DNA of 29,427 bases from an archaeon (GTDB lineage: Archaea > Aenigmatarchaeota > Aenigmatarchaeia > GW2011-AR5), in assembly GCA_035290775.1 (NCBI GenBank), contig DATDTP010000015.1, positions 1 through 29,427 on the forward strand. The letters run 5' to 3'. Of the stretch, positions 506 through 19,633 are shown one piece after another. Under the pieces are notes generated by a model. That model searched no databases and had not been told where the DNA came from. It was given only the letters and a program-made list of their open reading frames with translations. How positions within the stretch are numbered: the first letter of the stretch is position 1; every line of letters begins with the position of its first letter. Position numbers and translations under genes: made by a program.

Positions 506-3500
506 TCACACAGCCCATCCTTGCAACATGCCTGGAGACGTTACCCATATCCAGTAGCCTTGCTTAGGCTCCATTGTTGCTCCACCGGTTGTGAACTGGC
601 TTATGCCGTCCACATTTGCAACAGGCAATGCATATTTCTGTATCATTTCATTCCAATCTATCACTGATGTGTACATTGGATCGATTGATATCAGCGCATT
701 TTCCATTACCATTGGCGAGTCAAGCGACAAGCCTACAGTGTTCCATCCTGCTACAACGTTCTTTGTTGGTGGTGTTTGCACTCCAGTTGGTGCATATGTC
801 AGAGTCGCAACTGTTGGTGCTGGCATTTCTACCCAATAACCGTTGAGTGGTTGTATGACTGTTCCCATACTTGATGTGAATGTTTGTGTTCCCTCATTCC
901 ATGCATAGAAGCCTGTTGCTGTTGGGAATAGTGTTGATGCATTCGGGCTTCCTTGCAATGCAAATGGGACTGATACAAAGTTCCATCCGCTTACCAAGCT
1001 CAATTGGTTATTTGCAACCTCAAGGAATTCTATTGTTATTGTCTCTGGTGTCAAGTCCTTGAAGTTTGAGTACCCGCAGTTTCTGTACTCTTTTTCGAAC
1101 ATTGGATCTAACAGATCTGGGTTTAGCCATCTGAAGTCAACGCCTTCAAAGAATCCGAAGACTCCGAAGTCATTTGGCTCACAGACATAGGCGTCACCGC
1201 CGACTACTGTTATCTCTGCTGTTCCAGGCTCTGTTGATGTTACAAGTAACATCGTCTGGCCTGTTACTGGATCTGTCATGAAACGTGCTTTTGTTGGATT
1301 TAGCTCGTCAATGTCGCCGTTCCATGATACTGTTACTCCTGACTCAGCTGTTCCGCCTACATACAAGCTGCCCATGATTGCATTTCTTACGTCCATGAAA
1401 TCATTTTCAACCTGTACAGTTATCTGTGCTGCACTGATACCGTCTGCCAGTACAACCTGCTGGTCTGATGTAACATCCCATCTTGTTGCTGGATCCACAT
1501 AGTCTATTGATCCGTATGCTGGATCAAGCTGTGTTGTTTTTTCACTTGCAGGCAGACCGTTTTCATTTATTTCCTGGCCTTGCCATGGCAGTGCATCCCA
1601 AACTTCTGCTTCTATTCTTCCGCCGTGGTTGTTCCATTCATTGCCGTACGTTATGTACAAGCTTCCGCGTCCGAACAAAATGTCGAAGCAATACTGTGAT
1701 GGGTTTATTTGTGAGATGCTTATCACTCCGAATCTTGAATCGTCTACGTCCATCAACCATGGTGGCAATGAAGCGTCTGCGTCATCCAAGTCTATGCAGA
1801 TTTCATCAAATCTGTAATCTGGAAGACCTGTTGTGTCGCCTGGGTCACCTGCGAATCCTCCGCCTAGGTATCCTGTTACCCTGTGGCCCAAAGAGTCCTG
1901 CACTTCAATGGTCATCCATGCTCCTGTTTCTCCGTCTGCTGGTAATCTATCTGATGGTGTTATGCTTACTATTTCCAGCTTTACTGGAGCACCCTGGAAT
2001 ACTACTGTTGTTGTATCTTCTATCAAACCAGGTGAGGATGCTGTTATTGTTGCTGTTTCTGGGAAGTCGTCCAGTACTCTTAGTGTTTTATCTGCACCGA
2101 ACCACTTGCCAAGGAATCCACCTGCAAATTCAAGTGTTCCTGTGACATTGTTGTCATAGTTGTTCTCGCCGTCAAAGTCTTCAGAGATTACAACCTGGTT
2201 GTCTTGGTCGCCTAATGCAGTTACAGTCACATTATCTATATCTTCCTCGATAATGTTGCCGCAGCTGTCTAGTGCACGGACCCACAACTGTGCTTCCTGT
2301 TCGCCGTCAGCTGGGACGCCGAACCCTGGCACTGATATGATGTCCAAGCTTTCTGGATCGCCTGCCTCAAAGTTTACAAAGGTGTAGTCTGCATCCAGTG
2401 CGTATGGTGTAGCAGTTATGCGGTAGAAACCTGCATACTTGCTTGCTGCATAAAACTGTGCCTGACCATTTGCATTTGTCATGATCACGTTGTTTACTAC
2501 AGGCGTACCGTCCAAGTTATAGAACTCTACTTTAGCATTTGTAAAGTAGTTGTCTATCCATGCTGTATACTCTGATCCGAAGAAGTCTGCAAACAATACT
2601 TCGTGGAAGTAATCTGCAAATCCTTCGAACACTTCGTCGTCTTCCAGCATCTGCCTGAATTCTTCTTTATCTACGCAGTGGTCATTGTCCCAATCGAATC
2701 TTTCGCTTAGGAAAATGTCTGTGAAGATTTCTCCTTCTGCATCGAAGTCAAAGAATTCCCATGCAAGACATGAGTCTAGTGTTACTGGCAATGATTTTGC
2801 ATGTGGGTTCTGGAATCCGTCTGCTGTCTGTAGGTTTACGAGGAATGCATTTTCTGGATCAAATTCAAGATCCCCGTCTATGCACATTCCTACAGTTTTT
2901 GCATCAAAGCCGTCATGATTTATCATGACAACTTGTGTTGCTAACTGCTCAGCGAACGTTATTGTCTCTGGATTTGGAACTACGTTTATCAAAGACATGT
3001 CTTCTTGTGGCAAGTCACTGCAGACACCGGAAGATGATCTCCAGCTTTCGCCGCGAACATCCTGGCAGTCTTCTGCTGTTACATCGTCCATTAGAGGACC
3101 GCTGCAGCCATTTCGTACATAACATGTACCTAGCTCAGCTTCGTCTTGGTAGTCGCACACTGTTCCGCTTAGCTGTACGTCAGATGACCAAACTTGTACT
3201 GTTTCTGCTGTCAAGTCCCTGAACTTTATCCATGCGACTCCGTTTTCAAAGTCGAGGTTGTTTAGGAATTTGTCGCCGAAACCATACTCTTCTCCCTGGT
3301 AGAATTCATTTCTTGAGTCTACCCCATCAAAGACGTAGTTGTGGTCGTCCCTGCCTAAATCGTAGTCTTCACCGTAGCCGCTGAATTCCCTGTCTATTAT
3401 GTCAGCGTTGGTGTAATCCTGGTAGAATGCAAAGTTCACGTCGTAAACTCCGCACACGTCTCCGTTATCTGGATCGAGAACAACATAGAAGTCTGTTGTA

Positions 3501-6500
3501 TCTCCTGCTCTAACCAGAACACCGCCTTCTCTTTCTGGACCTGCACCGCCGTCTTCTTCAGTGCCTCTTGAATACCAATCAGCGCCGAAGTATGGGTTTG
3601 CTTTTGCAAGCTCTGCAACAGTCAATCCCTGTGGTGCATTTACGCCACCTGTAAGTGAGTCTATGTTGTTTGCTGGCGCTCTTCCAACTAGAATATCTTC
3701 ATTTGACTGGAAGCCTGGCGTCTCTTCGCTTTCTTGGTATATCTCTACATCAAAGTCGTAGTCTGGCGCGCTTATTGTAAACGCAAGCTTGTCGACCATG
3801 ATGTCGTCTTTTTCAAGATCTGTCCATTGTTTGCCTTCTTGTGCACAGTTGTCAACGACAAGCTTGAATACTGGGTCTTCGTCGTCAAGTTCGCATGCTG
3901 CGTCAGTTAAAAATCTGCAGCCGCTTTGTGCACCGGCTTGGTTTATTGTTTCCCAACATTCATCGAATGTAAAGTCGTCGCATGCATTTGCATCTGCTGT
4001 TCCTTCACATGTATCTACATCCCATGAACAGCCTGCATCCTGGCAAACTGCCTGTCCTTGTTGTGTTAGGCTTGAGCAAGCTGGTTGTCCTGTACAATAC
4101 TGTCCTGCGACATTCAAGTCTGCTGGCGAATCTACTTCTATAAAGCTTACGCAGTCTTCGCCTTTCAACTGAACGTCTACTTCACCGTTGAAATCTTCAA
4201 CGATGTTTTGGCAAGCGTCCAATGCATAAAAGTTGTCGTATATTGGCTCGCTTACAATGTCTGATCCTTTGTCTGGTATAACCAGACCGTTTCTTTCTGC
4301 CTCGAACTCAGTTATTATCCTTGCAGGTTCGCCAATTAGTGTTACTACCAATGGTTCGCACACTGTAAGGTTTGTTGGAAATCCTGATGGACAACACTGC
4401 TGTTGTGGCAGAACGTCTATTGTTACTGTACCGCACATTTCTGAATTTCTTATCATATCTACTGGTGTTGGAGTGTGTCCTGTTTCTGACAAGTCAACGC
4501 AAACTGTGTTTGTTGAAAAGTCAACTAAATTGCTTGGGTCTGTGACATTAAACGTAACACAAGTGTTTGCTATTGCATTTTGCGGGCATTCCTGATCTAC
4601 AACATAGTTGCCGCATACGTCCAGAATTCCTACGTCAATTTGTGCTTCTGGCTGACATGCAAGAAGATTTTCGTCTATTGTTAGACAAGCTGAGTCATCA
4701 GGCGCTGGTGCGCATCCTGGTGTCTGAGCGCATTGTTGCATGTTTTGGATTTCTTCACACTGAGGATCTATAAATTCCAATGCGACGCACGATGGAGGCG
4801 CGTTTATTACACTTACAAAGTCAACGCCTGGTTCTAGCGTATCAGAGAATGCTTCTATATCAAAGATGCCTAATCCCTGACAACCGCATATTGTTACTGT
4901 TCCCATGCCGTTTGTAAGCTTACCTTGCACTGCCTGTCCGTCGTCTAGAATTTCTTCTTCTAGGAAGTCGCTGTCTGTTATGTGTGTTATTCCAGAGTCT
5001 CCGCCGAATGGAGCTTCATGATCTGTTGGCAATGGATGCGTTAGTTCTACTCTTACAAGGCTGCTCCATTGCTGTGCATGGCCTGTAATAGGGTCTATGT
5101 ATTCTTCTAACACGTTTCCGAATTCGTCTGTTATTGTTACTGTTGCTTCAATACAAGCGTCTGCTGTTGTTACTGGTGGCGCTTCTACTATTACTCTTGC
5201 TGGTGCACCTGTAACGCCAGTTATCGTTATTGTTTTGCAGTTACTTGGGTCTGTATCAACGTTTGGTACAGACGGGTTTGTAACGCAAATTTCAACTTCG
5301 TGATCGCCTGTCTGTGTACTTGTCTTTAGATTTGCATCACCTATTCCCTGATCTGCAAGTTCGTCGTGGAATGATGAAAATCCGTCTGGAATGTCATCAT
5401 CGTCCAAACCTGCCCCAGGTGGTGAAGACAATAGATCAAAGCTTACGTCAGGCCTGTTTGGCACGTTTGTAATAACATTGCCATACTGGTCGTAGATTGT
5501 AACTTCTATCCTCTGCAAACTGCCTGCTGGCACGCTTGCTCCATCGCCTTCAGTTACATCCCAGCTTGCTGCCGGGCCTGCGTTTATCCCTACAAACTCT
5601 TCATCCATGCTGTCACTGCCTGTAAGCATGTCCACGCTAAGAACAACGTGAGCTATGCCTTTGACTGTGCCAGACACAAATGAAAGCTCTACTTGGCCTT
5701 TGTTTGTAGTAGCTTTTGGACTTGGATCATTGAATGAGCCGAGGTCAGTTGTAAAGAACACTTTTACAGCATCGTCTAGTACATCGAGCCATATTGTAAC
5801 GCCTGATGAGTTTGTTGTGCTGTTTACCAGTTGTGCAAAGATTGTTCTTGTCTGTCCGCCAACTGATATCACTGTTCCTTCTGTTGTTGCCTCAAAACCT
5901 GTTCCGATTGAAGATGGATCAGGCATTTTTACAACATCTCTCTGACCTAATATTGTCAAAGCTCCGCCAGAATTCAAGTCAATGAAATATTTGACAGATT
6001 CTGCGTCTTTTATAAAGCCGTCTTCAGCTTTTGTTGGTATATCCATTGCAGCCGTGTATGTAAGGTCAATTGTTGTCAGTGATGGACCTATTGCTGCATT
6101 GTCTGCAACCAGGAAGTCTGTTCCTGAGTTGAATATACCGTCGCCGTTGTCCATATATACATCTGCTGTTGTTGATGTACCGCTTGTTCTTCGGACATGC
6201 AGTTGTTCCAATCTACCCCAACCGCCCTTTGCAGTTGCTGTAAATTCATGCTCAACACCAGAGCCAGCTCCAAAGCTGTTTCTTTGGATGTATCTTATCT
6301 GGATGTCTGTTGCTGATGTTATCCTGATAACCACTTGCGGTGGATCTATTGGTGCCCTTACTGCAGACACCGAAGGTTCGTTGCTGTTGACATCTGATGT
6401 TAATATTGCAAATGTAGATGTCTCAGGCGCAGTAGGTGTTGTCAACCCTGTTATTGTGAAAATTACTTTTTCACCTGCGCATAGTATTTTGTTTGAAGAA

Positions 6501-6817
6501 GTAGATGTAATCCTTACAGACTGTAAGTCTGCAACTAATCCGCTTCTTGTCCCATCATCAGCCTCGTTTGTAACCGCCACAGTCCCTCTGCTCCATGATG
6601 AAACGTCTGCGACGCCACCCCATGTTGCCGGTGCTGTGAAGATTAACTCGTCTAGACATGCCGTGCCGTCATTAAGGAATTCGACGGTGATGTCTTGCGG
6701 AACGTTTGTCGTTGCTGATGTTGGGCTGTAAGAAACGACAGTTCCGTCGCCATTAGCAGCAAATGCTAGTGAAGCAGATAATGCTATGGCGAAAACTAAC
6801 ATTGTTAGTTTTTTCAT
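506..6817 (-). CDS. Giant secreted Ig/invasin(Big_1)-repeat surface protein (~2103 aa), S-layer/adhesin-like
   Basis: ORF-track start 6832 is a GTG inside the GGAGG RBS, so ATG 6817 (MKKLTMLVFAIALSASLAFA signal peptide) is preferred. About 8 modules of type G-x-P..ADG..v.v.D..GN.v, acidic and Cys-rich inserts, and a C-terminal GWNxVS/GYW duplicated domain. Confidence 0.9.
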   Translation of the reverse strand: MKKLTMLVFAIALSASLAFAANGDGTVVSYSPTSATTNVPQDITVEFLNDGTACLDELIFTAPATWGGVADVSSWSRGTVAVTNEADDGTRSGLVADLQSVRITSTSSNKILCAGEKVIFTITGLTTPTAPETSTFAILTSDVNSNEPSVSAVRAPIDPPQVVIRITSATDIQIRYIQRNSFGAGSGVEHEFTATAKGGWGRLEQLHVRRTSGTSTTADVYMDNGDGIFNSGTDFLVADNAAIGPSLTTIDLTYTAAMDIPTKAEDGFIKDAESVKYFIDLNSGGALTILGQRDVVKMPDPSSIGTGFEATTEGTVISVGGQTRTIFAQLVNSTTNSSGVTIWLDVLDDAVKVFFTTDLGSFNDPSPKATTNKGQVELSFVSGTVKGIAHVVLSVDMLTGSDSMDEEFVGINAGPAASWDVTEGDGASVPAGSLQRIEVTIYDQYGNVITNVPNRPDVSFDLLSSPPGAGLDDDDIPDGFSSFHDELADQGIGDANLKTSTQTGDHEVEICVTNPSVPNVDTDPSNCKTITITGVTGAPARVIVEAPPVTTADACIEATVTITDEFGNVLEEYIDPITGHAQQWSSLVRVELTHPLPTDHEAPFGGDSGITHITDSDFLEEEILDDGQAVQGKLTNGMGTVTICGCQGLGIFDIEAFSDTLEPGVDFVSVINAPPSCVALEFIDPQCEEIQNMQQCAQTPGCAPAPDDSACLTIDENLLACQPEAQIDVGILDVCGNYVVDQECPQNAIANTCVTFNVTDPSNLVDFSTNTVCVDLSETGHTPTPVDMIRNSEMCGTVTIDVLPQQQCCPSGFPTNLTVCEPLVVTLIGEPARIITEFEAERNGLVIPDKGSDIVSEPIYDNFYALDACQNIVEDFNGEVDVQLKGEDCVSFIEVDSPADLNVAGQYCTGQPACSSLTQQGQAVCQDAGCSWDVDTCEGTADANACDDFTFDECWETINQAGAQSGCRFLTDAACELDDEDPVFKLVVDNCAQEGKQWTDLEKDDIMVDKLAFTISAPDYDFDVEIYQESEETPGFQSNEDILVGRAPANNIDSLTGGVNAPQGLTVAELAKANPYFGADWYSRGTEEDGGAGPEREGGVLVRAGDTTDFYVVLDPDNGDVCGVYDVNFAFYQDYTNADIIDREFSGYGEDYDLGRDDHNYVFDGVDSRNEFYQGEEYGFGDKFLNNLDFENGVAWIKFRDLTAETVQVWSSDVQLSGTVCDYQDEAELGTCYVRNGCSGPLMDDVTAEDCQDVRGESWRSSSGVCSDLPQEDMSLINVVPNPETITFAEQLATQVVMINHDGFDAKTVGMCIDGDLEFDPENAFLVNLQTADGFQNPHAKSLPVTLDSCLAWEFFDFDAEGEIFTDIFLSERFDWDNDHCVDKEEFRQMLEDDEVFEGFADYFHEVLFADFFGSEYTAWIDNYFTNAKVEFYNLDGTPVVNNVIMTNANGQAQFYAASKYAGFYRITATPYALDADYTFVNFEAGDPESLDIISVPGFGVPADGEQEAQLWVRALDSCGNIIEEDIDNVTVTALGDQDNQVVISEDFDGENNYDNNVTGTLEFAGGFLGKWFGADKTLRVLDDFPETATITASSPGLIEDTTTVVFQGAPVKLEIVSITPSDRLPADGETGAWMTIEVQDSLGHRVTGYLGGGFAGDPGDTTGLPDYRFDEICIDLDDADASLPPWLMDVDDSRFGVISISQINPSQYCFDILFGRGSLYITYGNEWNNHGGRIEAEVWDALPWQGQEINENGLPASEKTTQLDPAYGSIDYVDPATRWDVTSDQQVVLADGISAAQITVQVENDFMDVRNAIMGSLYVGGTAESGVTVSWNGDIDELNPTKARFMTDPVTGQTMLLVTSTEPGTAEITVVGGDAYVCEPNDFGVFGFFEGVDFRWLNPDLLDPMFEKEYRNCGYSNFKDLTPETITIEFLEVANNQLSLVSGWNFVSVPFALQGSPNASTLFPTATGFYAWNEGTQTFTSSMGTVIQPLNGYWVEMPAPTVATLTYAPTGVQTPPTKNVVAGWNTVGLSLDSPMVMENALISIDPMYTSVIDWNEMIQKYALPVANVDGISQFTTGGATMEPKQGYWIWVTSPGMLQGWAV

Positions 6818-6860
6818 TCGAATCGCCTCCACATTTTTAATTTTTTATTTCTTAAAAAGA

Positions 6861-8045: not shown

Positions 8046-8699
8046 TTAAAACCTTGATTCTGGATTTCCCAAGTGTTCTTGAATATTCATATCAACAAAT
8101 AGCCAAAATCTAGTGGCACTTGCAAGTTCATCATTTTCACTTGAAGAATATTCTTGTATTAATTTAGAACACAATTTTTTTGCTCTTTCATGAGCTTCGA
8201 TTGATGTATGCCCATTTAAAATAGAAATAGGTATTTCATTGGAAATTTGTTTGAATGGCTCTGCAATTTTATCTTTTGCTGGATTGCATTCTCTATCCGC
8301 AGAATGCAGCCAAGAAAATGCCCCATTATAACCTATATATGAGTTTCCGCCTTTTTCAATAACATCTTTTCCTAGAACATTTGACGAGTAGCAAGCTCTA
8401 GCATAAACTATTGTACCTTTGAGCAAATCTGTATTTTTACCAACCTCTATTAGTGGTTCATCGTTATGCCCTAAAATTGCTGTAGCATTTTCTAATCCAT
8501 GTCCGTTAAATATAACAAGCGTTGGTTTCATTTTTCTTAGGTAATTTTCTACTCTTTCTTTAGTAGCTTTATTTTTATCAAAATCTGTAAATTTTATACA
8601 TTTTTCCTGTGCAATGTCTAATATTTCTTTACTCCATGCATGTAAGTATGCTACTCTATATTCATGATGTGGTCTTGTGATTAAAAATAATTTGCTCAT
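8046..8699 (-). CDS. Cytoplasmic caspase/gingipain-fold (clan CD-like) cysteine protease, putative
   Basis: LVIFNGHG (His67) and IVYARAC (Cys103), each after a hydrophobic beta-strand; 36-residue spacing; no signal peptide. Confidence 0.6.
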   Translation of the reverse strand: MSKLFLITRPHHEYRVAYLHAWSKEILDIAQEKCIKFTDFDKNKATKERVENYLRKMKPTLVIFNGHGLENATAILGHNDEPLIEVGKNTDLLKGTIVYARACYSSNVLGKDVIEKGGNSYIGYNGAFSWLHSADRECNPAKDKIAEPFKQISNEIPISILNGHTSIEAHERAKKLCSKLIQEYSSSENDELASATRFWLFVDMNIQEHLGNPESRF

Positions 8700-8700
8700 T

Positions 8701-8904
8701 TTATAAACCCTTGCTCATTGATTTTAAATATTCTATCTGCATCTTAACTACAAATTTTCCTAAATTCGTGTCATCTTCAACATTTTTAATTAGGTCTTCT
8801 TTTGAAAATGTTCCAAGCGTACCCATAGACACCTTTATGTTACTTGGCATAACTTCGAGGCGTTTTATAACTAATTTTTTTAATTCCTCGTTAATTTGCA
8901 GCAT
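8701..8904 (-). CDS. Small hypothetical protein (67 aa), module subunit B
   Basis: ATG immediately follows the upstream TAA (8905-8907) and its own stop lies 1 nt before the protease ATG, indicating translational coupling. Confidence 0.8.
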   Translation of the reverse strand: MLQINEELKKLVIKRLEVMPSNIKVSMGTLGTFSKEDLIKNVEDDTNLGKFVVKMQIEYLKSMSKGL

Positions 8905-9123
8905 TTATATCAGCTCCAGTTGAATTAATTTCTTTAATATCTCTTTGCCTTTTCCTGTACTATTTTCAATTTCTATAAAAGCAACGTCCCAAGTTATAGG
9001 CTTATCGTCTACTAAAAGTATAATTTCGTTCCTCATACCCAATGGCACGTTTGAATAAGCTCTTAGGAATCTATCTTTATTTTCGAGAGCGTCTTCTTTT
9101 GACATTGATATTATTTGTATCAT
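8905..9123 (-). CDS. Small hypothetical protein (72 aa; alternative start 9105), module subunit A
   Basis: First gene of the coupled three-gene operon; AT-rich TATA-like stretch near 9140-9150. Confidence 0.75.
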   Translation of the reverse strand: MIQIISMSKEDALENKDRFLRAYSNVPLGMRNEIILLVDDKPITWDVAFIEIENSTGKGKEILKKLIQLELI

Positions 9124-9173: not shown

Positions 9174-9572
9174 TCAGCGCTTCAGTGTTGCCGACGAAGG
9201 CCGGTATTGCGAGTCGCCCAGAAATTCTATCTTAGCTGTTTTCCAGTTGTAAGGGGCTACAATAAACCAAGAGCCGCCAGAGTATGTGCGCGTATAAAGC
9301 ACGACTTTTTTAGTAATTCCCCCCTGAGGGTACTGCAATGTCAGCCTGACGTATTTGAATCCCAAGTCCTGGCCGCTTTCCTTGTCCTTCAAAGAGCCGT
9401 AGAAAATAAATGCGCTGTTGCCAATCGTTAGCTGCGTATCATGCGGGTATGGCGAAAGCACCCTGACTGTTGCCGTGACCTGCGCACTGCTGCTTTCAGA
9501 ATACGCAATGCCTGCAAAGAGCATCAATGCTATGAGAGGCAATGCGAATAATATCAGGCTTTCTTTCCTCAT
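9174..9572 (-). CDS. Small secreted beta-sandwich protein with N-terminal extension (putative minor pilin/tip)
   Basis: Signal peptide, GGTGAGG RBS (9577-9583), mature N-terminus ESSSAQVTATVRV with alternating hydrophobic residues. Confidence 0.75.
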   Translation of the reverse strand: MRKESLILFALPLIALMLFAGIAYSESSSAQVTATVRVLSPYPHDTQLTIGNSAFIFYGSLKDKESGQDLGFKYVRLTLQYPQGGITKKVVLYTRTYSGGSWFIVAPYNWKTAKIEFLGDSQYRPSSATLKR

Positions 9573-9620
9573 TTTTCCTCACCTTTTATCAAAAAATGAA
9601 ATAAAATAAAAAAATCTACC

Positions 9621-10106
9621 TTAACAGCTTGCAGTGAATGTTATTGTTTGCGTGTATGTTCCTGCGGCCTGACCTGCTGGAATTGATAGTCTAAACTCTG
9701 GAATTTTTGTCTCACCATTCAAAACAATTCCATCAAATATTGGCACAGGCGATGATGATAATGCTAAATTTGTCCAAGACAGTTCGTTATCATCACTTAC
9801 TGAAGTTCTACTTACATCCATAGGGACAGTTACAGGATTCGTTTGCCAACCATCACCATACACAGTAAATCCAGTTGTTGAAACAGAACCTGTGTTTTTT
9901 ACGCTTACTGGTTGTGCTAATGATGGATTACCACCTGCAATTAATTGTCCGAATGCTATTGGATTTCCTGCAGTTATAGATAAGCCACAAGTTTCCTCTA
10001 TTGTCGTTTCTGCTGTTGCACTTATCGTTTCTGTTATTGCAAAAACTCCTGCTGCAAACAAAGCCAGAGCCATTACTGCTACTGATGCTCCTATTGCTTT
10101 TTTCAT
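9621..10106 (-). CDS. Secreted pilin-like subunit (Csu/spore-coat-U/WxL-like pattern), 161 aa
   Basis: GAGGTGA RBS at 10112-10118 places the start at ATG 10106. Motifs ATAETTIEETCGLSI..IAFGQL and C-terminal AGTYTQTITFTA. Confidence 0.75.
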   Translation of the reverse strand: MKKAIGASVAVMALALFAAGVFAITETISATAETTIEETCGLSITAGNPIAFGQLIAGGNPSLAQPVSVKNTGSVSTTGFTVYGDGWQTNPVTVPMDVSRTSVSDDNELSWTNLALSSSPVPIFDGIVLNGETKIPEFRLSIPAGQAAGTYTQTITFTASC

Positions 10107-10117
10107 ATTCTTCACCT

Positions 10118-10810
10118 CTAAATTTTTCCTAATTTTTTCAAAATCGCAAATGCGACTAAAATTATTACGATGATTGCGGCTATTGCTGCGCCTGTTGCAA
10201 GGTCTGCAGGGAAAGCTGCGGCAAAACCTGTGGACGGCAGGCCTGCTTGCAAAGGCTCTGCTGCAGGCTGCTGTTCTCCTAGACCGGTTGGTTCTGTGTT
10301 GTCAGGCTGGTCTGGATTGTTTTGTTGGGGTTGTTGCGCAGCCGTTGTATTTTTAGTTGGAGTTGCTGCAGTTCCAGAGCTGCCGGCTGATGATGGAGTG
10401 CTGTTTGCTGGAGCTGAAGAAGGCTGGTTTGTTACTGTAATTGTAAGGCTCTTTTTCATCTGAACGTTAATCTGCACCTGACCGGGCTTGCCCTGTTGCA
10501 GGGCGTAGACAGAACCGGATATTGTATTTCCTGAATTATAATTTGAAGGTATTGCTGCAGTGATAGAAGCATAGACAATTTTGTTCGGCACTAATTCAAC
10601 AGAAGCTGGAAAAGACAGATACTGCGCGGCATCGCCATCTGCTCTTATGCTTATTGTTATGGTTTCATTGCCGTCGTTCACCAAGCCGTATTGGGCTGAG
10701 TTGCTCCCGCCGACAGGCACAGAAATGAGCAGCTGGCCTGCTACCTGCTGCAGTGCAAGCGCGCTTGGCGTAAATAACAAAATGAATAGAATGAATAATA
10801 TCCTTTTCAT
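10118..10810 (-). CDS. Secreted Ig-like (PapD/DUF916-like) domain + S/T/P/Q linker + C-terminal membrane anchor
   Basis: Signal peptide; beta-rich ~105-aa domain; low-complexity linker; LPSTG, hydrophobic helix and KKLGKI tail; GGGGTGGA RBS. Confidence 0.8.
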   Translation of the reverse strand: MKRILFILFILLFTPSALALQQVAGQLLISVPVGGSNSAQYGLVNDGNETITISIRADGDAAQYLSFPASVELVPNKIVYASITAAIPSNYNSGNTISGSVYALQQGKPGQVQINVQMKKSLTITVTNQPSSAPANSTPSSAGSSGTAATPTKNTTAAQQPQQNNPDQPDNTEPTGLGEQQPAAEPLQAGLPSTGFAAAFPADLATGAAIAAIIVIILVAFAILKKLGKI

Positions 10811-11342: not shown

Positions 11343-12098
11343 TTACTTTGCTAATGCAGCGTCTATGGCGGTCTTGAAAGCGCTGTAAGGCTGTGCGCCT
11401 ACCAGCTTGACACCGTTCACAAAGAATGATGGTGTGCCGCTTACGCCATAAGATGATCCATCAGATATGTCTTTCTGGACTTCAGATGCGTATTTGCCTG
11501 AGCTTAGGCATGACTCAAACTGTGCCTTGCTTGCCCCTGCTGCCACTGCATATTCACTGAATTTTGCAGCTGCGGCTGTTGCGTCAAGATTTGACCATGC
11601 TGACTGAGTTTCAAACAGCTTGTCGTGCATCTGCCAGAATTTTCCCTGCTCGTCTGCACACTCTGAAGCTTCTGCCGCTTTCTGTGCATTTGGATGGAAG
11701 CCTAGAGGAAAGTCCCTGAACACTACTTTGACTTTTCCTGTGTCAACATAGTCTTTTCTTATTGACTGAAGAGTCTGCGTGTAGAATCTTTCACAGAACG
11801 GGCACTGGAAGTCTGAGAATTCTATTATTGTAACTTTTGCATTTGCCTGTCCTTCTACAGGGTCGTCGTCAGCAGAAACCTGTATTGCATCAGGTTGTGT
11901 AGGCTGCTGAGGAGCTGCGGGCGTAGGCTGTGCAACAACGTTTCCTGTTGTTGGTATGCCATTTACAGAACTGTTTCCTACGACATATCCGCCTGTAAAA
12001 GAAAATGCTATTGCTACAATAACAAGTGCTGCTAGCAATTTTGTATAGGTTGCTTTTCTTAATGTTATTGTTTCTCCTTTTATTGTCTCTCCGTCCAT
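11343..12098 (-). CDS. dsbA: Membrane-anchored DsbA/thioredoxin-fold oxidoreductase (paralog 1)
   Basis: EFSDFQCPFC active site, FRDFPL, cis-Pro GTPSFFVNG, GAQPY; N-terminal TM helix. Confidence 0.9.
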   Translation of the reverse strand: MDGETIKGETITLRKATYTKLLAALVIVAIAFSFTGGYVVGNSSVNGIPTTGNVVAQPTPAAPQQPTQPDAIQVSADDDPVEGQANAKVTIIEFSDFQCPFCERFYTQTLQSIRKDYVDTGKVKVVFRDFPLGFHPNAQKAAEASECADEQGKFWQMHDKLFETQSAWSNLDATAAAAKFSEYAVAAGASKAQFESCLSSGKYASEVQKDISDGSSYGVSGTPSFFVNGVKLVGAQPYSAFKTAIDAALAK

Positions 12099-14105: not shown

Positions 14106-14882
14106 CTACTTTGCCAATTCAGCATCTATTGTTTGCTTGAAAACGCTGTAAGGCTGTGCGCCTACCAGTTCCACCCCGTTTATGTAAAATGTCGGAGTGC
14201 CACTTACGCCATAAGATGCTCCATCAGCTTCGTCTTTCTGAACATTAGAGGCGTACTTGCCTGTGCTTAGGCATGTGTCGAACTGCGCCTTGTTTGCGCC
14301 TGCTGCCACTGCATATTCGCTGAATTTTGCAGCTGCAGATGTTGCATCAAGGTTTGACCAGTCTGCCTGAGTTTCAAACAGTGTGTCATGCATTTGCCAG
14401 AATTTTCCCTGTTCTTTTGCACATTCTGTTGCTTCTGCCGCCTTCTGAGCGTTCTGATGGAAGCCTAGAGGAAAATGCCTGAAAACAAGCTTGACTTTTC
14501 CTGTGTCAATATAATCTGCTTTTATTGATGGCAATGTCTGCGTGTAGAACCTTTCACAGAACGGGCACTGCATGTCTGAGAATTCTATTATCGTGACTTT
14601 TGCGTTGGCGTCGCCCAGCACAGGCCCGTTGCCTGCTGCTGCCTGGACAACCACCTGCTGTTGCTGTTCAGGTGCCTGATTGTCGTTTGGCTGTTGTGCG
14701 ACAACATTTGCGCCATTTACAGAACTGTTTCCTACGACATATCCGCCTGTAAAAGAGAATGCTATTGCAAGTATCACGAGAGAAGCGAGAAGCATTTTGA
14801 AGGTTGATTTTTTAATTGATACGCTTTCCTGTTTTTTTACGTGCTCTTCTTTTTTCAAATGACTTTGATTTTCTTCTGCCAT
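14106..14882 (-). CDS. dsbA: Membrane-anchored DsbA/thioredoxin-fold oxidoreductase (paralog 2), 258 aa
   Basis: EFSDMQCPFC, GTPTFYING; GGAGG RBS at 14892-14896 supports ATG 14882 (MAEENQ). Confidence 0.9.
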   Translation of the reverse strand: MAEENQSHLKKEEHVKKQESVSIKKSTFKMLLASLVILAIAFSFTGGYVVGNSSVNGANVVAQQPNDNQAPEQQQQVVVQAAAGNGPVLGDANAKVTIIEFSDMQCPFCERFYTQTLPSIKADYIDTGKVKLVFRHFPLGFHQNAQKAAEATECAKEQGKFWQMHDTLFETQADWSNLDATSAAAKFSEYAVAAGANKAQFDTCLSTGKYASNVQKDEADGASYGVSGTPTFYINGVELVGAQPYSVFKQTIDAELAK

Positions 14883-14923
14883 TATACAAAACCTCCGCCT
14901 TTGGCGGCATTCTGCTATAACCA

Positions 14924-15013
14924 TTACATAAATTGTAAACGTTATTATGAAGATGCAAGTATATAAAGTTATTTTATTTCTAGGGCAAAATAATTTGTTA
15001 CATAAATTGTAAA
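14924..15013. promoter_or_regulatory. Two identical 16-bp operators TTACATAAATTGTAAA (14924-14939, 14998-15013) between divergent dsbA and blaI
   Basis: Exact repeat; each is an inverted repeat TTACA-N5-TGTAA containing the TACA/TGTA half-sites known for BlaI/MecI/CopY. Confidence 0.75.
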
Positions 15014-17671: not shown

Positions 17672-17721
17672 GCTAAGTTATTTCTGTATTATTATTAATG
17701 CTTTTTTATTGTTATTTTGAT

Positions 17722-18243
17722 ATGAGCGACAGAATCACAAGACGAGAAGATTTAGAAGCTTATTTAGTTACAAATCTTAAAACATACCAAAAGTACGCAA
17801 GGCGGTTATGTCGCGATTTGTATACTTTCGATGATGCTCATGATGTCATGGGCCAGGCAGTTGTGAATGCGCTTCAGCGTTTTCGTGGCTGTAATGATGA
17901 AGAGCACTTAATATCATGGCTTTACACCGTTGTTAGAAATACTTTCATTGATTTTCACAGACGTGAACATAGACGTACATTTAACAGAGCTGATTTTGAT
18001 TATGGTATGGCAGATATAAATCACTCCATGGATGGACAAAACCAAGAGCTTGAAAAAAGAAGCCAAAAACTTAAAGATGCAATTTTTTTGCTGCCGAACA
18101 CTCTTCGTGACGTAATGATTTTGCGCATTTACGAAGAATTGAGCTACAATGAAATTGCTTCAAGGCTTTCTTTACCTTATCCTACTGTAGTGGGACGTGT
18201 ACAACGTGCAACTGTACGCTTATCAAAGAATATTAAAATATAA
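17722..18243 (+). CDS. ECF (sigma-24-like) sigma-70 factor homolog 1
   Basis: Region 2-like DAHDVMGQAVVNAL..SWLYTVVRNTFIDFHRR; region 4-like LPNTLRDVMILR..LSYNEIASRL; ATG 17722 preferred over 17698. Confidence 0.8.
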   Translation: MSDRITRREDLEAYLVTNLKTYQKYARRLCRDLYTFDDAHDVMGQAVVNALQRFRGCNDEEHLISWLYTVVRNTFIDFHRREHRRTFNRADFDYGMADINHSMDGQNQELEKRSQKLKDAIFLLPNTLRDVMILRIYEELSYNEIASRLSLPYPTVVGRVQRATVRLSKNIKI

Positions 18244-19025: not shown

Positions 19026-19087
19026 CTGTTATTAGTTTAACTCTGCATCTTATATTCTTTTTGTGCATTGAAAATTAGGTTTTGAAA

Positions 19088-19633
19088 ATGGCTACTGCTA
19101 GCGTAAAGGATTTTGAAATATATATGGAAAATAATATGCCTTACTTGAGGCGCATTGCATCAAACGTTACGGGCTACGGGCATGCAATTGAACCAGATGA
19201 TTTGCTTCAGGATGCAATATATAGCGCATTTAAAAGACTTGAAACGTATCGAGGCGGACCAAATGATTTCAAGCCTTGGATATCAAGAATTATTAGAAAT
19301 GCATACATTGACGCATACAGGAGGGCAACAAGAGAAGTCTGCACGCAGCCTATTAAAGAAGCGGCAGAAATACAATGTCGCCGCTTGTCTCCTTTTGACG
19401 TTTTTTCAAAAGAACAAAGTGGTGCAAGAATTATTGCTGTTATTGATGGGCTACCGGATAACCTTGCTGAGGCAGCGAGATTGCGTTTTATTGACGACCG
19501 CAAGTATATAGAAATTGCAGAAACACTGAAAATTCCAGAAGGCACTGTGAAAAGCAGAATTAGCAGGGCAAGAGAGCTTATTCGCAGAAATCTTTTGGAC
19601 AGCGACCCGAATCTGCTTAATTATGATTTTTGA
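19088..19633 (+). CDS. ECF (sigma-24-like) sigma-70 factor homolog 2
   Basis: DDLLQDAIYSAF..FKPWISRIIRNAYIDAYRR and LPDNLAEAARLRF..YIEIAETLKIPEGTVKSRISRARELIR; ATG 19088 after AGGT. Confidence 0.85.
   Translation: MATASVKDFEIYMENNMPYLRRIASNVTGYGHAIEPDDLLQDAIYSAFKRLETYRGGPNDFKPWISRIIRNAYIDAYRRATREVCTQPIKEAAEIQCRRLSPFDVFSKEQSGARIIAVIDGLPDNLAEAARLRFIDDRKYIEIAETLKIPEGTVKSRISRARELIRRNLLDSDPNLLNYDF

Follow-up and report, generated by a model that had tools for sequence, protein, structure and literature searches.

The window analysed here, meaning the whole stretch of 29,427 nucleotides of contig DATDTP010000015.1 (archaeal assembly GCA_035290775.1, Aenigmatarchaeota), carries on its minus strand, from 10810 to 9174, three co-oriented open reading frames (ORFs) encoding a membrane-anchored protein (gene 1, the anchor), a pilin-like subunit (gene 2) and a small secreted protein (gene 3), and we describe this cluster as a candidate locus for an archaeal surface fibre built by donor-strand exchange. 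Each product has a Sec-type signal peptide, in which a positive N-terminus is followed by a hydrophobic core and by ALA, VFA or AYS ahead of the cleavage point, and GGTG-type ribosome sites precede all three starts (GGGGTGG, GAGGTGA and AGGTGAGG). A class III (type IV pilin) signal was found in none of the three gene products, and the 78%-complete genome returned no match to the usher (PF00577) at E ≤ 1, to the PapD-family chaperone (PF00345) or to a sortase or exosortase. The initial annotation, made from the DNA letters alone, had described three co-oriented secreted genes with strong ribosome sites and neither usher nor type IV pilin signals, and this is borne out by the ORFs, the signal peptides and the genome search. 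Gene 2 starts at the ATG at 10106, 7 nucleotides past GAGGTGA, which yields 161 amino acids; a GTG start at 10115 (164 amino acids) was rejected, as this codon lies inside the GAGGTGA ribosome site. The stop codon of gene 1 directly abuts the ribosome site of gene 2. The source genome is a metagenome-assembled genome of 706 kb that encodes TBP and ribosomal protein L15e, which mark it as archaeal, and contains one copy each of the subunit and of the anchor, which makes the cluster a 'tipless' one, and a sequencing-run search showed that the same DNA recurs in groundwater and soil metagenomes. NCBIfam holds nothing for any of the three proteins, and a PDB sequence search with the family profiles of anchor and subunit gave chance matches only. 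The features of the cluster are the following:

10118-10810, minus strand: gene 1, membrane-anchored PapD-like anchor/chaperone-like protein, 230 amino acids
10430-10753, minus strand: immunoglobulin (Ig)-like domain of PapD/major sperm protein (MSP) type, gene 1 residues 20-127 (DSSP and predicted local distance difference test (pLDDT) 92-98 in AlphaFold2; column conservation, n = 75)
10202-10429, minus strand: disordered stalk rich in Ser, Thr, Pro and Gln, about 75 residues, gene 1 residues 128-203 (pLDDT 44-61, no secondary structure)
10226-10240, minus strand: LPSTG just before the transmembrane helix, the local form of the xTG[LF] motif seen across the family (Gly195 more than 90% conserved, n = 75)
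10133-10201, minus strand: C-terminal transmembrane helix, gene 1 residues 204-226, followed by a basic tail (helix in the AlphaFold2 model)
9621-10106, minus strand: gene 2, pilin-like subunit, 161 amino acids from the ATG at 10106 (AlphaFold2 pLDDT 95.7, predicted template-modelling score 0.85)
9990-10037, minus strand: putative donor strand, gene 2 mature residues 1-16, ITETISATAETTIEET (no beta pairing in the monomer model; alternation statistics)
9624-9989, minus strand: putative acceptor (incomplete-Ig-like) domain, from the conserved Cys-Gly to the C-terminal ...YTQTITFTASC (conservation, n = 114)
9591-9614, minus strand: T-rich tract of about 24 nucleotides in the spacer between genes 2 and 3, read from the sequence as a putative archaeal oligo-T attenuator or terminator
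9174-9572, minus strand: gene 3, secreted protein with a putative donor strand only, 132 amino acids, candidate base or terminator piece
9456-9485, minus strand: donor-strand-like AQVTATVRVL of gene 3, followed by LSPYP (18.1 bits on the donor-strand matrix described below)

The subunit belongs to a family without a name in databases, for which a word-based search recovered just two relatives while an exhaustive profile search gave 445 representative clusters at E ≤ 0.001 and 146 at E ≤ 1e-10. The family domain starts with Cys-Gly, ends with Y-x-Q-T-I-T-F-T-x-x-Cys and lies nearly always at the extreme C-terminus, where it occurs alone (about 150 amino acids), behind payloads of 100-1,500 residues or in tandem. 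Across 114 aligned sequences, Cys17, Cys138, Tyr128 and Gln130 of gene 2 are invariant or nearly so, and the best-conserved part of the subunit is the C-terminal strand, which ends at a fixed C-terminal residue as in chaperone-usher pilins. The motifs quoted for the cluster in the initial annotation (ATAETTIEETCG...IAFG, AGTYTQTITFTASC and, in gene 3, SAQVTATVRV) are all present. A model of the mature protein, computed from the 114-sequence alignment, was compared with solved and predicted structures by Foldseek. In the PDB it retrieved the TasA fibre, the Csu pilus, PapA, Fim pilins, CfaB, Caf1 and cannulae, interspersed with a GH123 N-terminal domain, at modest scores (E 1e-4 to 2e-2, TM-score 0.4-0.6; TasA fibre 0.60/0.39), and in AFDB camelysin, three WxL clusters (E 2e-5 to 2e-4), SCPU and DUF4402 (TM-score 0.74/0.78). 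The alignment with the Csu pilus chain 7zl4_A opens at model residue 16, corresponding to chain residue 15, and 137 of 138 residues align with the pond fibril TLP-1b, a solved donor-strand-exchange protomer (PMC11494351). The predicted fold of gene 2 thus belongs among those of donor-strand fibre subunits, the fold comparison alone being silent on whether the sandwich is incomplete. At the sequence level, DUF4402 (PF14352) scores 15.3-19.2 bits on gene 2 against a cut-off of 25.2, and SCPU (PF05229) 11.4 bits against 22.4; weak matches to these two families are found in 24 (SCPU, best E 3e-6) and 17 (DUF4402) of the 114 members. The WxL family is not among the 25 commonest Pfam matches of these members, so that the WxL resemblance is structural only, and the TasA/camelysin or DUF1102 type is likewise not among their commonest matches. 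The likeness of the subunit to Csu and WxL pilins, as proposed initially, therefore holds for the fold, with TasA, Csu, WxL, SCPU and DUF4402 all retrieved by Foldseek, and fails as family membership by sequence.

The N-terminal segment of the subunit behaves as an element of its own. In the AlphaFold2 monomer, mature residues 1-18 have no assigned beta pairing. Among 74 small family members, a hydrophobic residue stands at positions -4, -6, -8 and -10 relative to the first Cys in 80, 70, 65 and 72%, respectively, against 18-32% at the odd positions, and the donor consensus of the small members reads D-V-T-A-S-V-T-V-x-x-x-C-G. In 37 large members the hydrophobicity profile before the Cys is flat, many of them running through a poly-Thr linker or a Cys-rich module into P-T-C-G, which indicates that the subunit domain can exist without that strand. 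About 9 of the 74 small members also lack the strand, their Cys following directly after the signal peptide, and match in this respect acceptor-only cap pilins such as PamT. Furthermore, in tandem members from Micrarchaeaceae a donor-like strand is retained within the linker of 19 residues that joins the C-terminal Cys of domain 1 to the first Cys of domain 2, the spacing required for this strand to turn back alongside the final strand of domain 1. The contrast between small and large members, the strandless small members and the tandem linkers together indicate that the N-terminal strand is an add-on available for intermolecular pairing, its insertion into a neighbouring subunit being putative. 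The division known from WxL/Elr systems, in which the small pilin has an amphipathic N-terminal donor strand and the tip adhesins have none, is found here as well (74 small versus 37 large members). In two related loci (L014 and L016) the subunits contain a Cys-rich insert between donor strand and acceptor domain, similar to a Cys-rich knot present within the Thr-rich stalk of an anchor homologue (L027:1-765).

Gene 1 was described initially as a membrane-anchored Ig-like protein on a long linker, and AlphaFold2 indeed shows a signal peptide, a sandwich, a disordered linker and a transmembrane helix. The anchor family comprises at least 75 members, in which the stalk varies in length and sequence while nearly all retain the hydrophobic stretch and the Lys/Arg-rich tail at the C-terminus. 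The nearest solved structure to the gene 1 model is an enterococcal WxLIP, followed by chaperones of chaperone-usher systems, in agreement with Foldseek, and the AFDB search placed DUF916 and CARDB clusters on top (DUF916 at ranks 2 and 8). By its modelled fold, gene 1 is of the PapD-like chaperone type. The initial comparison of the anchor with the DUF916 membrane proteins of WxL clusters gains from the top solved match, as WxLIP is a DUF916 protein. Across 75 sequences, conservation is highest in LQQVAG at the mature N-terminus, which forms the A strand, and in PGQVQINVQMKKS, which covers the F-G loop and the G strand. PapD-family chaperones complement subunits via their A/G edge, and the conservation of gene 1 thus marks the surface that chaperones use for subunit complementation. 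In sequence searches, gene 1 has no Pfam match at E ≤ 0.1 in an alignment scan and no match to PF06030 or PF11797 even at E ≤ 1, and only 4 of 75 relatives match PF06030 (E about 0.03); the combination of DUF916 (PF06030) and DUF3324 (PF11797) that characterises the WxL/Elr chaperone is not found in single-domain gene 1. The anchors do not have a donor-strand-like N-terminus, their scores on a position-specific scoring matrix (PSSM) for the donor strand ranging from -2 to 5 bits. A homology between anchor and subunit was rejected, since the profile-profile probability reached 55% only and was driven by signal peptides. An interpretation of LPSTG as an LPxTG sorting signal was rejected too, as the family-wide motif is xTG[LF] and the 78%-complete genome contains no sortase or exosortase match. 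The xTG[LF] motif, transmembrane helix and basic tail of the 75 anchor homologues have the layout of a tripartite sorting signal, yet in a genome without such a match.

Anchor and subunit are immediate neighbours in all 12 loci with enough flanking sequence (the window, L001, L003, L007, L009, L011, L012, L014, L015, L016, L018 and L019), and this adjacency persists at 35-60% identity, which gives the conserved gene order that a synteny survey was expected to show and goes beyond chance. The homologues are labelled Aenigmarchaeota or Aenigmatarchaeota. Tip-type proteins, consisting of a payload and a C-terminal acceptor domain, are encoded in L003, L009, L011, L012, L016 and L019 and represented by many family members, and in L003, L009, L011, L012 and L019 the genes follow the order large tip-type protein, anchor, small subunit. 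In a survey of the phylum, strong anchor matches were found in about 7 of 371 genomes, each of which also has a match to the subunit family. The subunit match adjoins the anchor in five genomes (G000, G167, G094, G068 and G047) and lies within about 700 nucleotides in G065; in G067 the anchor match is a fragment and the subunit-like match lies on a different contig. A scan of species-representative genomes returned 4 loci only.

A distant variant consists of subunit-like genes of 183-194 amino acids beside membrane-anchored anchor relatives of 300-408 amino acids with two or three domains. These multi-domain cousins have CARDB matches, and 6 of 11 show sub-threshold matches to WxLIP_HBD (PF11797; best E 6e-6, 26.7 bits against a cut-off of 28.9), with occasional matches to WxLIP_PGBD, which hints, at the level of sequence profiles, at a distant kinship between anchor and WxLIP. 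Gene 1 is the short, one-domain form of the anchor family. The multi-domain version is the more widespread one within the phylum (L021-L024, L030-L035 and L037; e.g., L022:1504-2658 and L024:1507-2667); its anchors start with A-[IL]-G-[IV]-S-P-x-R and contain an Ig domain related to that of the gene 1 anchor, and each is flanked by the 183-194-amino-acid subunit-like gene and by a small Ig protein of 137-154 amino acids.

The third gene of the cluster was analysed with the donor-strand PSSM, which had been trained on 60 foreign small subunits and was applied to 218 signal-peptide-like ORFs of the genome. With 18.1 bits gene 3 ranks first of 218 (background median -0.2, 99th percentile 13.3). 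Its body resembles a small sandwich of the CnaB/CarboxypepD_reg type, its language-model neighbours being Cna-B, MG4, Big_1 and CarboxypepD_reg clusters, and an acceptor domain was not found in it. The proteins encoded right after the small subunit in other loci also score on the PSSM, with 17.5 bits in L007, 16.1 in L009 (a 188-amino-acid dockerin protein with NITASVTVT), 14.0 in L011 (320 amino acids) and 10.6 in L012 (317 amino acids). Except for the L007 homologue, the bodies of these proteins are unlike gene 3, those of L011 and L012 seeming related to each other, and all four have neither an acceptor domain nor a transmembrane helix and are donor-only proteins without an LPxTG motif. The large upstream proteins score about 0-3 bits, with the exception of that in L016, which has an acceptor domain too. 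Judged from these sequences, the slot for a donor-only protein is a conserved architectural feature, while gene 3 itself, having a single real homologue, was rejected as a member of a conserved family. Two further proteins of the genome with high PSSM scores, a secreted protein of 532 amino acids (rank 2, 14.5 bits; G000 contig C2:1481-3091, minus strand) and a giant surface protein of 2,103 amino acids (rank 3, 13.4 bits; window 506-6832, minus strand), could be additional donor-bearing partners or chance matches. A 231-amino-acid ENA protein (P0229) shares 99% identity with gene 3 in the C-terminal 55% of its length, is unrelated in its N-terminal half and probably derives from a chimeric metagenome contig.

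Gene 3 had been taken for the tip of the fibre. This was rejected on polarity, as a protein with a donor strand and no acceptor domain belongs at the base or terminator end in every known donor-strand-exchange system. The fibres of chaperone-usher, Elr and Pam systems finish at the base with a subunit that is donor-only or cannot be exchanged, and by analogy a role as base or terminator adaptor is likelier for gene 3 than one as tip. From the initial scheme of an anchor or chaperone, a shaft and a tip, the chaperone-type fold and the strand-bearing small subunit have thus been retained and the tip role of gene 3 has been given up. The recurrence of the strand also bears on another explanation, in which the genes encode unrelated secreted Ig-like envelope proteins that happen to be neighbours, each N-terminal strand opens the fold of its own protein and the genes keep their order as parts of a common surface regulon, not because their products form a complex. 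Sandwiches of the Ig-like kind are very common among surface proteins of the DPANN archaea (Diapherotrites, Parvarchaeota, Aenigmatarchaeota, Nanoarchaeota and Nanohaloarchaeota), the fold scores are modest (TM-score 0.4-0.6, Foldseek E 1e-4 to 1e-2) and the window is rich in other surface genes. We nevertheless regard this explanation as very unlikely, because anchor and subunit stay adjacent across 12 loci at 35-60% identity and again in the distant multi-domain variant, because the strand is dispensable for the domain in the large proteins, and because the same strand consensus returns on non-homologous neighbours.

The interpretation that we consider on balance probable is that the cluster encodes an usher-less donor-strand-exchange surface fibre of a DPANN archaeon, aided by a membrane-anchored chaperone, and thus an archaeal counterpart of the Elr/WxL and Pam pili. 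From these data we infer the binding of anchor and subunit, the insertion and polarity of the strand, the role of the disulfide and a function in attachment, as follows. All three proteins would be exported by Sec. The two Cys residues that bracket the first and the last strand of the subunit domain would be oxidised, probably by DsbA-like enzymes encoded nearby (described below). The PapD-like domain of gene 1, held above the membrane by its stalk, might then bind the incomplete Ig-like domain of the subunit via the edge formed by LQQVAG and PGQVQINVQMKKS and keep the subunit assembly-competent. The amphipathic N-terminal strand of the next subunit would displace gene 1 and complete the fold of the previous subunit, which would result in a linear head-to-tail polymer. 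In related loci, the fibre would begin with a large protein that has a payload and an acceptor domain but no donor strand and that would form the distal tip, and the gene 3 protein with its 132 amino acids could plug the last groove and thereby end the fibre or adapt its base. Several observations weigh against such a fibre. No sequence match to DUF916, SCPU, DUF4402 or WxL reaches its curated cut-off; gene 1 is single-domain and does not have the two-domain cleft of chaperone-usher chaperones and of ElrE and PamC/D; a tip protein was found neither in the window nor in the 78%-complete genome, which has just one gene for the subunit; and for gene 3 the only real non-self homologue is that in the same slot in L007. 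The protein following the anchor in L027, donor-like by eye, scored only 6.4 bits on the PSSM and was not counted. Moreover, the donor-only proteins have no membrane or wall anchor, so that a finished fibre would have no obvious hold on the cell, and the sequencing-run search returned DNA datasets only (groundwater and soil) and no expression data.

The closest parallel in logic is the Elr/WxL pilus of Enterococcus faecalis (ElrA-E), in which a membrane-anchored DUF916/DUF3324 chaperone drives usher-less donor-strand exchange between small WxL pilins with a 15-residue donor strand, tip adhesins carry a C-terminal WxL domain and an LPxTG terminator is present; the system is reported to be confined to Bacillota, with 'tipless' operons being common (bioRxiv 10.64898/2026.10.17.759780). 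Shared with it are a membrane-anchored, putatively fold-complementing protein, a small subunit composed of a putative donor strand and a presumably incomplete Ig domain, large proteins in related loci with a payload and the domain at the C-terminus and the absence of an usher; in addition, WxL-domain models are among the best AFDB matches of gene 2, WxLIP (structure 9i1y in WxL clusters) is the nearest solved fold to gene 1, and the cluster is 'tipless' too. In contrast to Elr/WxL, the system belongs to an archaeon, its anchor is a single-domain protein instead of DUF916 plus DUF3324, there is no Pfam WxL, DUF916 or DUF3324 match at cut-off, the archaeal subunit has a Cys pair that lies outside the WxL definition, and this genome has neither an LPxTG terminator protein nor a sortase match. 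The donor consensus differs as well, being V-x-A-x-V-x-V here and [ST]-x-[GA]-x-[VI]-x-F in Elr/WxL. A WxL pilin by sequence was not found within 10 kb of the anchor, the adjacency of anchor and subunit itself being present. An older model of WxL clusters, a static display platform, involves no polymer: the tethered Ig protein would permanently bind the C-terminal domains of secreted proteins and hold these on its stalk above the membrane, and the small subunit would be a regulator or filler of the binding site. A stalk of 75 residues and a transmembrane helix suit a tether, the domain is a C-terminal tag on very diverse payloads, this was the accepted view of WxL and WxLIP until 2026 (PMC10599100), and the presence of just one subunit gene and no payload protein in this genome also speaks for it. 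Left unexplained by it are the payload-free small proteins, which are the commonest family members, the conserved amphipathic N-terminal strand that is confined to small proteins, and the donor-strand-only proteins kept in the next gene slot; furthermore, the equivalent WxL model was overturned by cryo-electron microscopy of ElrD polymers (bioRxiv 10.64898/2026.10.17.759780). We therefore judge such a platform unlikely.

The fibre interpretation has a second parallel in the Pam pili of bacteria of the candidate phyla radiation (CPR), with PamA/B/E/T, PamC/D and PamR, in which membrane-anchored chaperones support usher-less donor-strand exchange and whose pilins are reported to be exclusive to CPR (bioRxiv 10.64898/2026.03.03.709456). 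As here, the host is an ultra-small, episymbiont-type cell without an outer membrane and the chaperone has a C-terminal transmembrane helix; exchange is proposed to proceed without a trans-envelope machine, and the acceptor-only tip pilin PamT and the donor-bearing terminator PamR are paralleled in the archaeal loci. However, the Pam chaperones are two-domain proteins and PamR has its own transmembrane helix, which the donor-only proteins here do not have. Two-domain pilins (nine-strand sandwich, linker strand and truncated Ig), two-domain membrane-anchored chaperones and a membrane-anchored PamR, by which Pam is defined, were not found, the transmembrane anchoring of the chaperone-like protein being the sole defining feature in common. 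With Csu of Acinetobacter (SCPU, PF05229) and DUF4402 (PF14352) the subunit shares a donor strand directly before a Cys and the C-terminal G-x-Y-x-x-T-h-x-h strand, the DUF4402 model being the best mutual AFDB match of gene 2 (TM-score 0.74/0.78). Archaea have no outer membrane, and in contrast to Csu/SCPU systems the cluster has neither an usher nor a periplasmic two-domain chaperone (PF00345/PF02753). Gene 2 presumably also differs from CsuA/B in its predicted disulfide, which would connect the first Cys with the C-terminal residue.

Within archaea, donor-strand fibres described as chaperone-free comprise Sulfolobus threads, Pyrobaculum bundling pili, haloarchaeal tafi or Tat-dependent pili and Pyrodictium cannulae (PMC9715654, PMC9245690, PMC11821415, PMC12337348, PMC12518558). 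Their Ig or TasA-like subunits are linked to one another through an N-terminal strand, and TasA and cannula subunits are among the Foldseek matches of gene 2. Here, in contrast, a PapD-like membrane protein is always encoded beside the subunit; tafi also have a dedicated SipW-like peptidase, whereas this cluster has no signal peptidase gene, and the combination of a TasA/camelysin or DUF1102 subunit with a SipW-like peptidase, typical of TasA, bundling pili and tafi, was not found. The cluster might nonetheless specify such a chaperone-free fibre, with gene 1 as a membrane-proximal base that ties it to the cell. Archaeal donor-strand fibres described so far are reported to need no chaperone (PMC12518558), gene 1 is single-domain with a long stalk, and the donor-only proteins have no anchor of their own. 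On the other hand, the fold of gene 1 is complete and has no donor-like N-terminus, so that it has no obvious way to plug into the subunit except the chaperone-like one, its nearest structures are chaperones and WxLIP, and its conservation peaks at the A/G edge, the surface used by chaperones. The two roles are moreover compatible, since a chaperone that stayed in the final groove would hold the fibre to the cell as well. A chaperone-free fibre with gene 1 only as its base is accordingly quite unlikely in our judgement. The TLP-1a/b pond fibrils (PDB 9IKJ/9IKK; PMC11494351) differ from gene 2 in a protomer larger by about 100 residues, an 8-nm tubule and n+4 donation, with 15% identity and no known common gene context. 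In a literature search, no account was found of a PapD-like membrane chaperone that is paired, in an archaeon, with subunits of pilin type. Judged by the sequence definitions, the cluster lies outside the WxL, SCPU/Csu, TasA and Pam systems; gene 1 resembles domain 1 only of PapD-family chaperones and is membrane-tethered, and the cluster would work like these systems rather than belong to them.

If a chaperone-aided fibre is indeed encoded here, usher-less assembly with a membrane chaperone would extend beyond Bacillota and CPR, to which preprints of 2026 report the two known pathways to be restricted, one to each, and an archaeal gene pair with the same logic would change the chaperone-free picture of archaeal donor-strand fibres. 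An unannotated family of several hundred clusters would also receive a name and a role open to testing, and there would be a concrete candidate for the way in which DPANN cells with reduced genomes make adhesive fibres. The 138-residue subunit and the 108-residue ectodomain are simple test objects, and a modular grammar of donors and acceptors would aid the reading of other DPANN surface loci. More tentatively, DPANN archaea (Aenigmatarchaeota, Micrarchaeota and possibly others) might own a family of donor-strand pili built by a WxLIP-related, membrane-anchored PapD-like chaperone, whose modular parts form a host-attachment apparatus, a generalisation that we regard as possible and at present doubtful. 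In this case usher-less chaperone-guided assembly would span both prokaryotic domains and not just Bacillota and CPR, and the pathway would be either ancient or exchanged among envelope-poor, episymbiotic lineages.

The neighbourhood of the cluster includes two genes for candidate disulfide-forming enzymes:

11343-12098, minus strand: membrane-anchored DsbA-like thiol oxidoreductase, upstream of the cluster (Thioredoxin_4 E 3e-38, DSBA E 2e-21)
14106-14924, minus strand: second membrane-anchored DsbA-like gene, also upstream

These two genes flank a surface protein of 588 amino acids with DUF2341 and coiled-coil regions, and a DsbA homologue likewise lies upstream of the anchor in L001 and L007. 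DsbA-like neighbours fit the invariant Cys pair of the subunit. A signal peptidase gene was not found next to the cluster in the window or in the related loci. Downstream of gene 3, at 8046-9123 of the window, lies a three-gene module (72, 67 and 217 amino acids, GC content about 31%), which is a separate unit and not part of the operon, as it is inverted beside the cluster in L007 (L007:7629-8670). Elsewhere in the window, at 17698-18243 (and see the ORF at 19082-19633), an ORF has Pfam matches to Sigma70 region 2 and region 4 and resembles extracytoplasmic-function sigma factors, in a genome that otherwise encodes archaeal TBP and L15e. The L15e match itself (G000:C7:7935-8360) contains one in-frame TAA, which may stem from a sequencing error or else reflect a split gene or an intron-like interruption.

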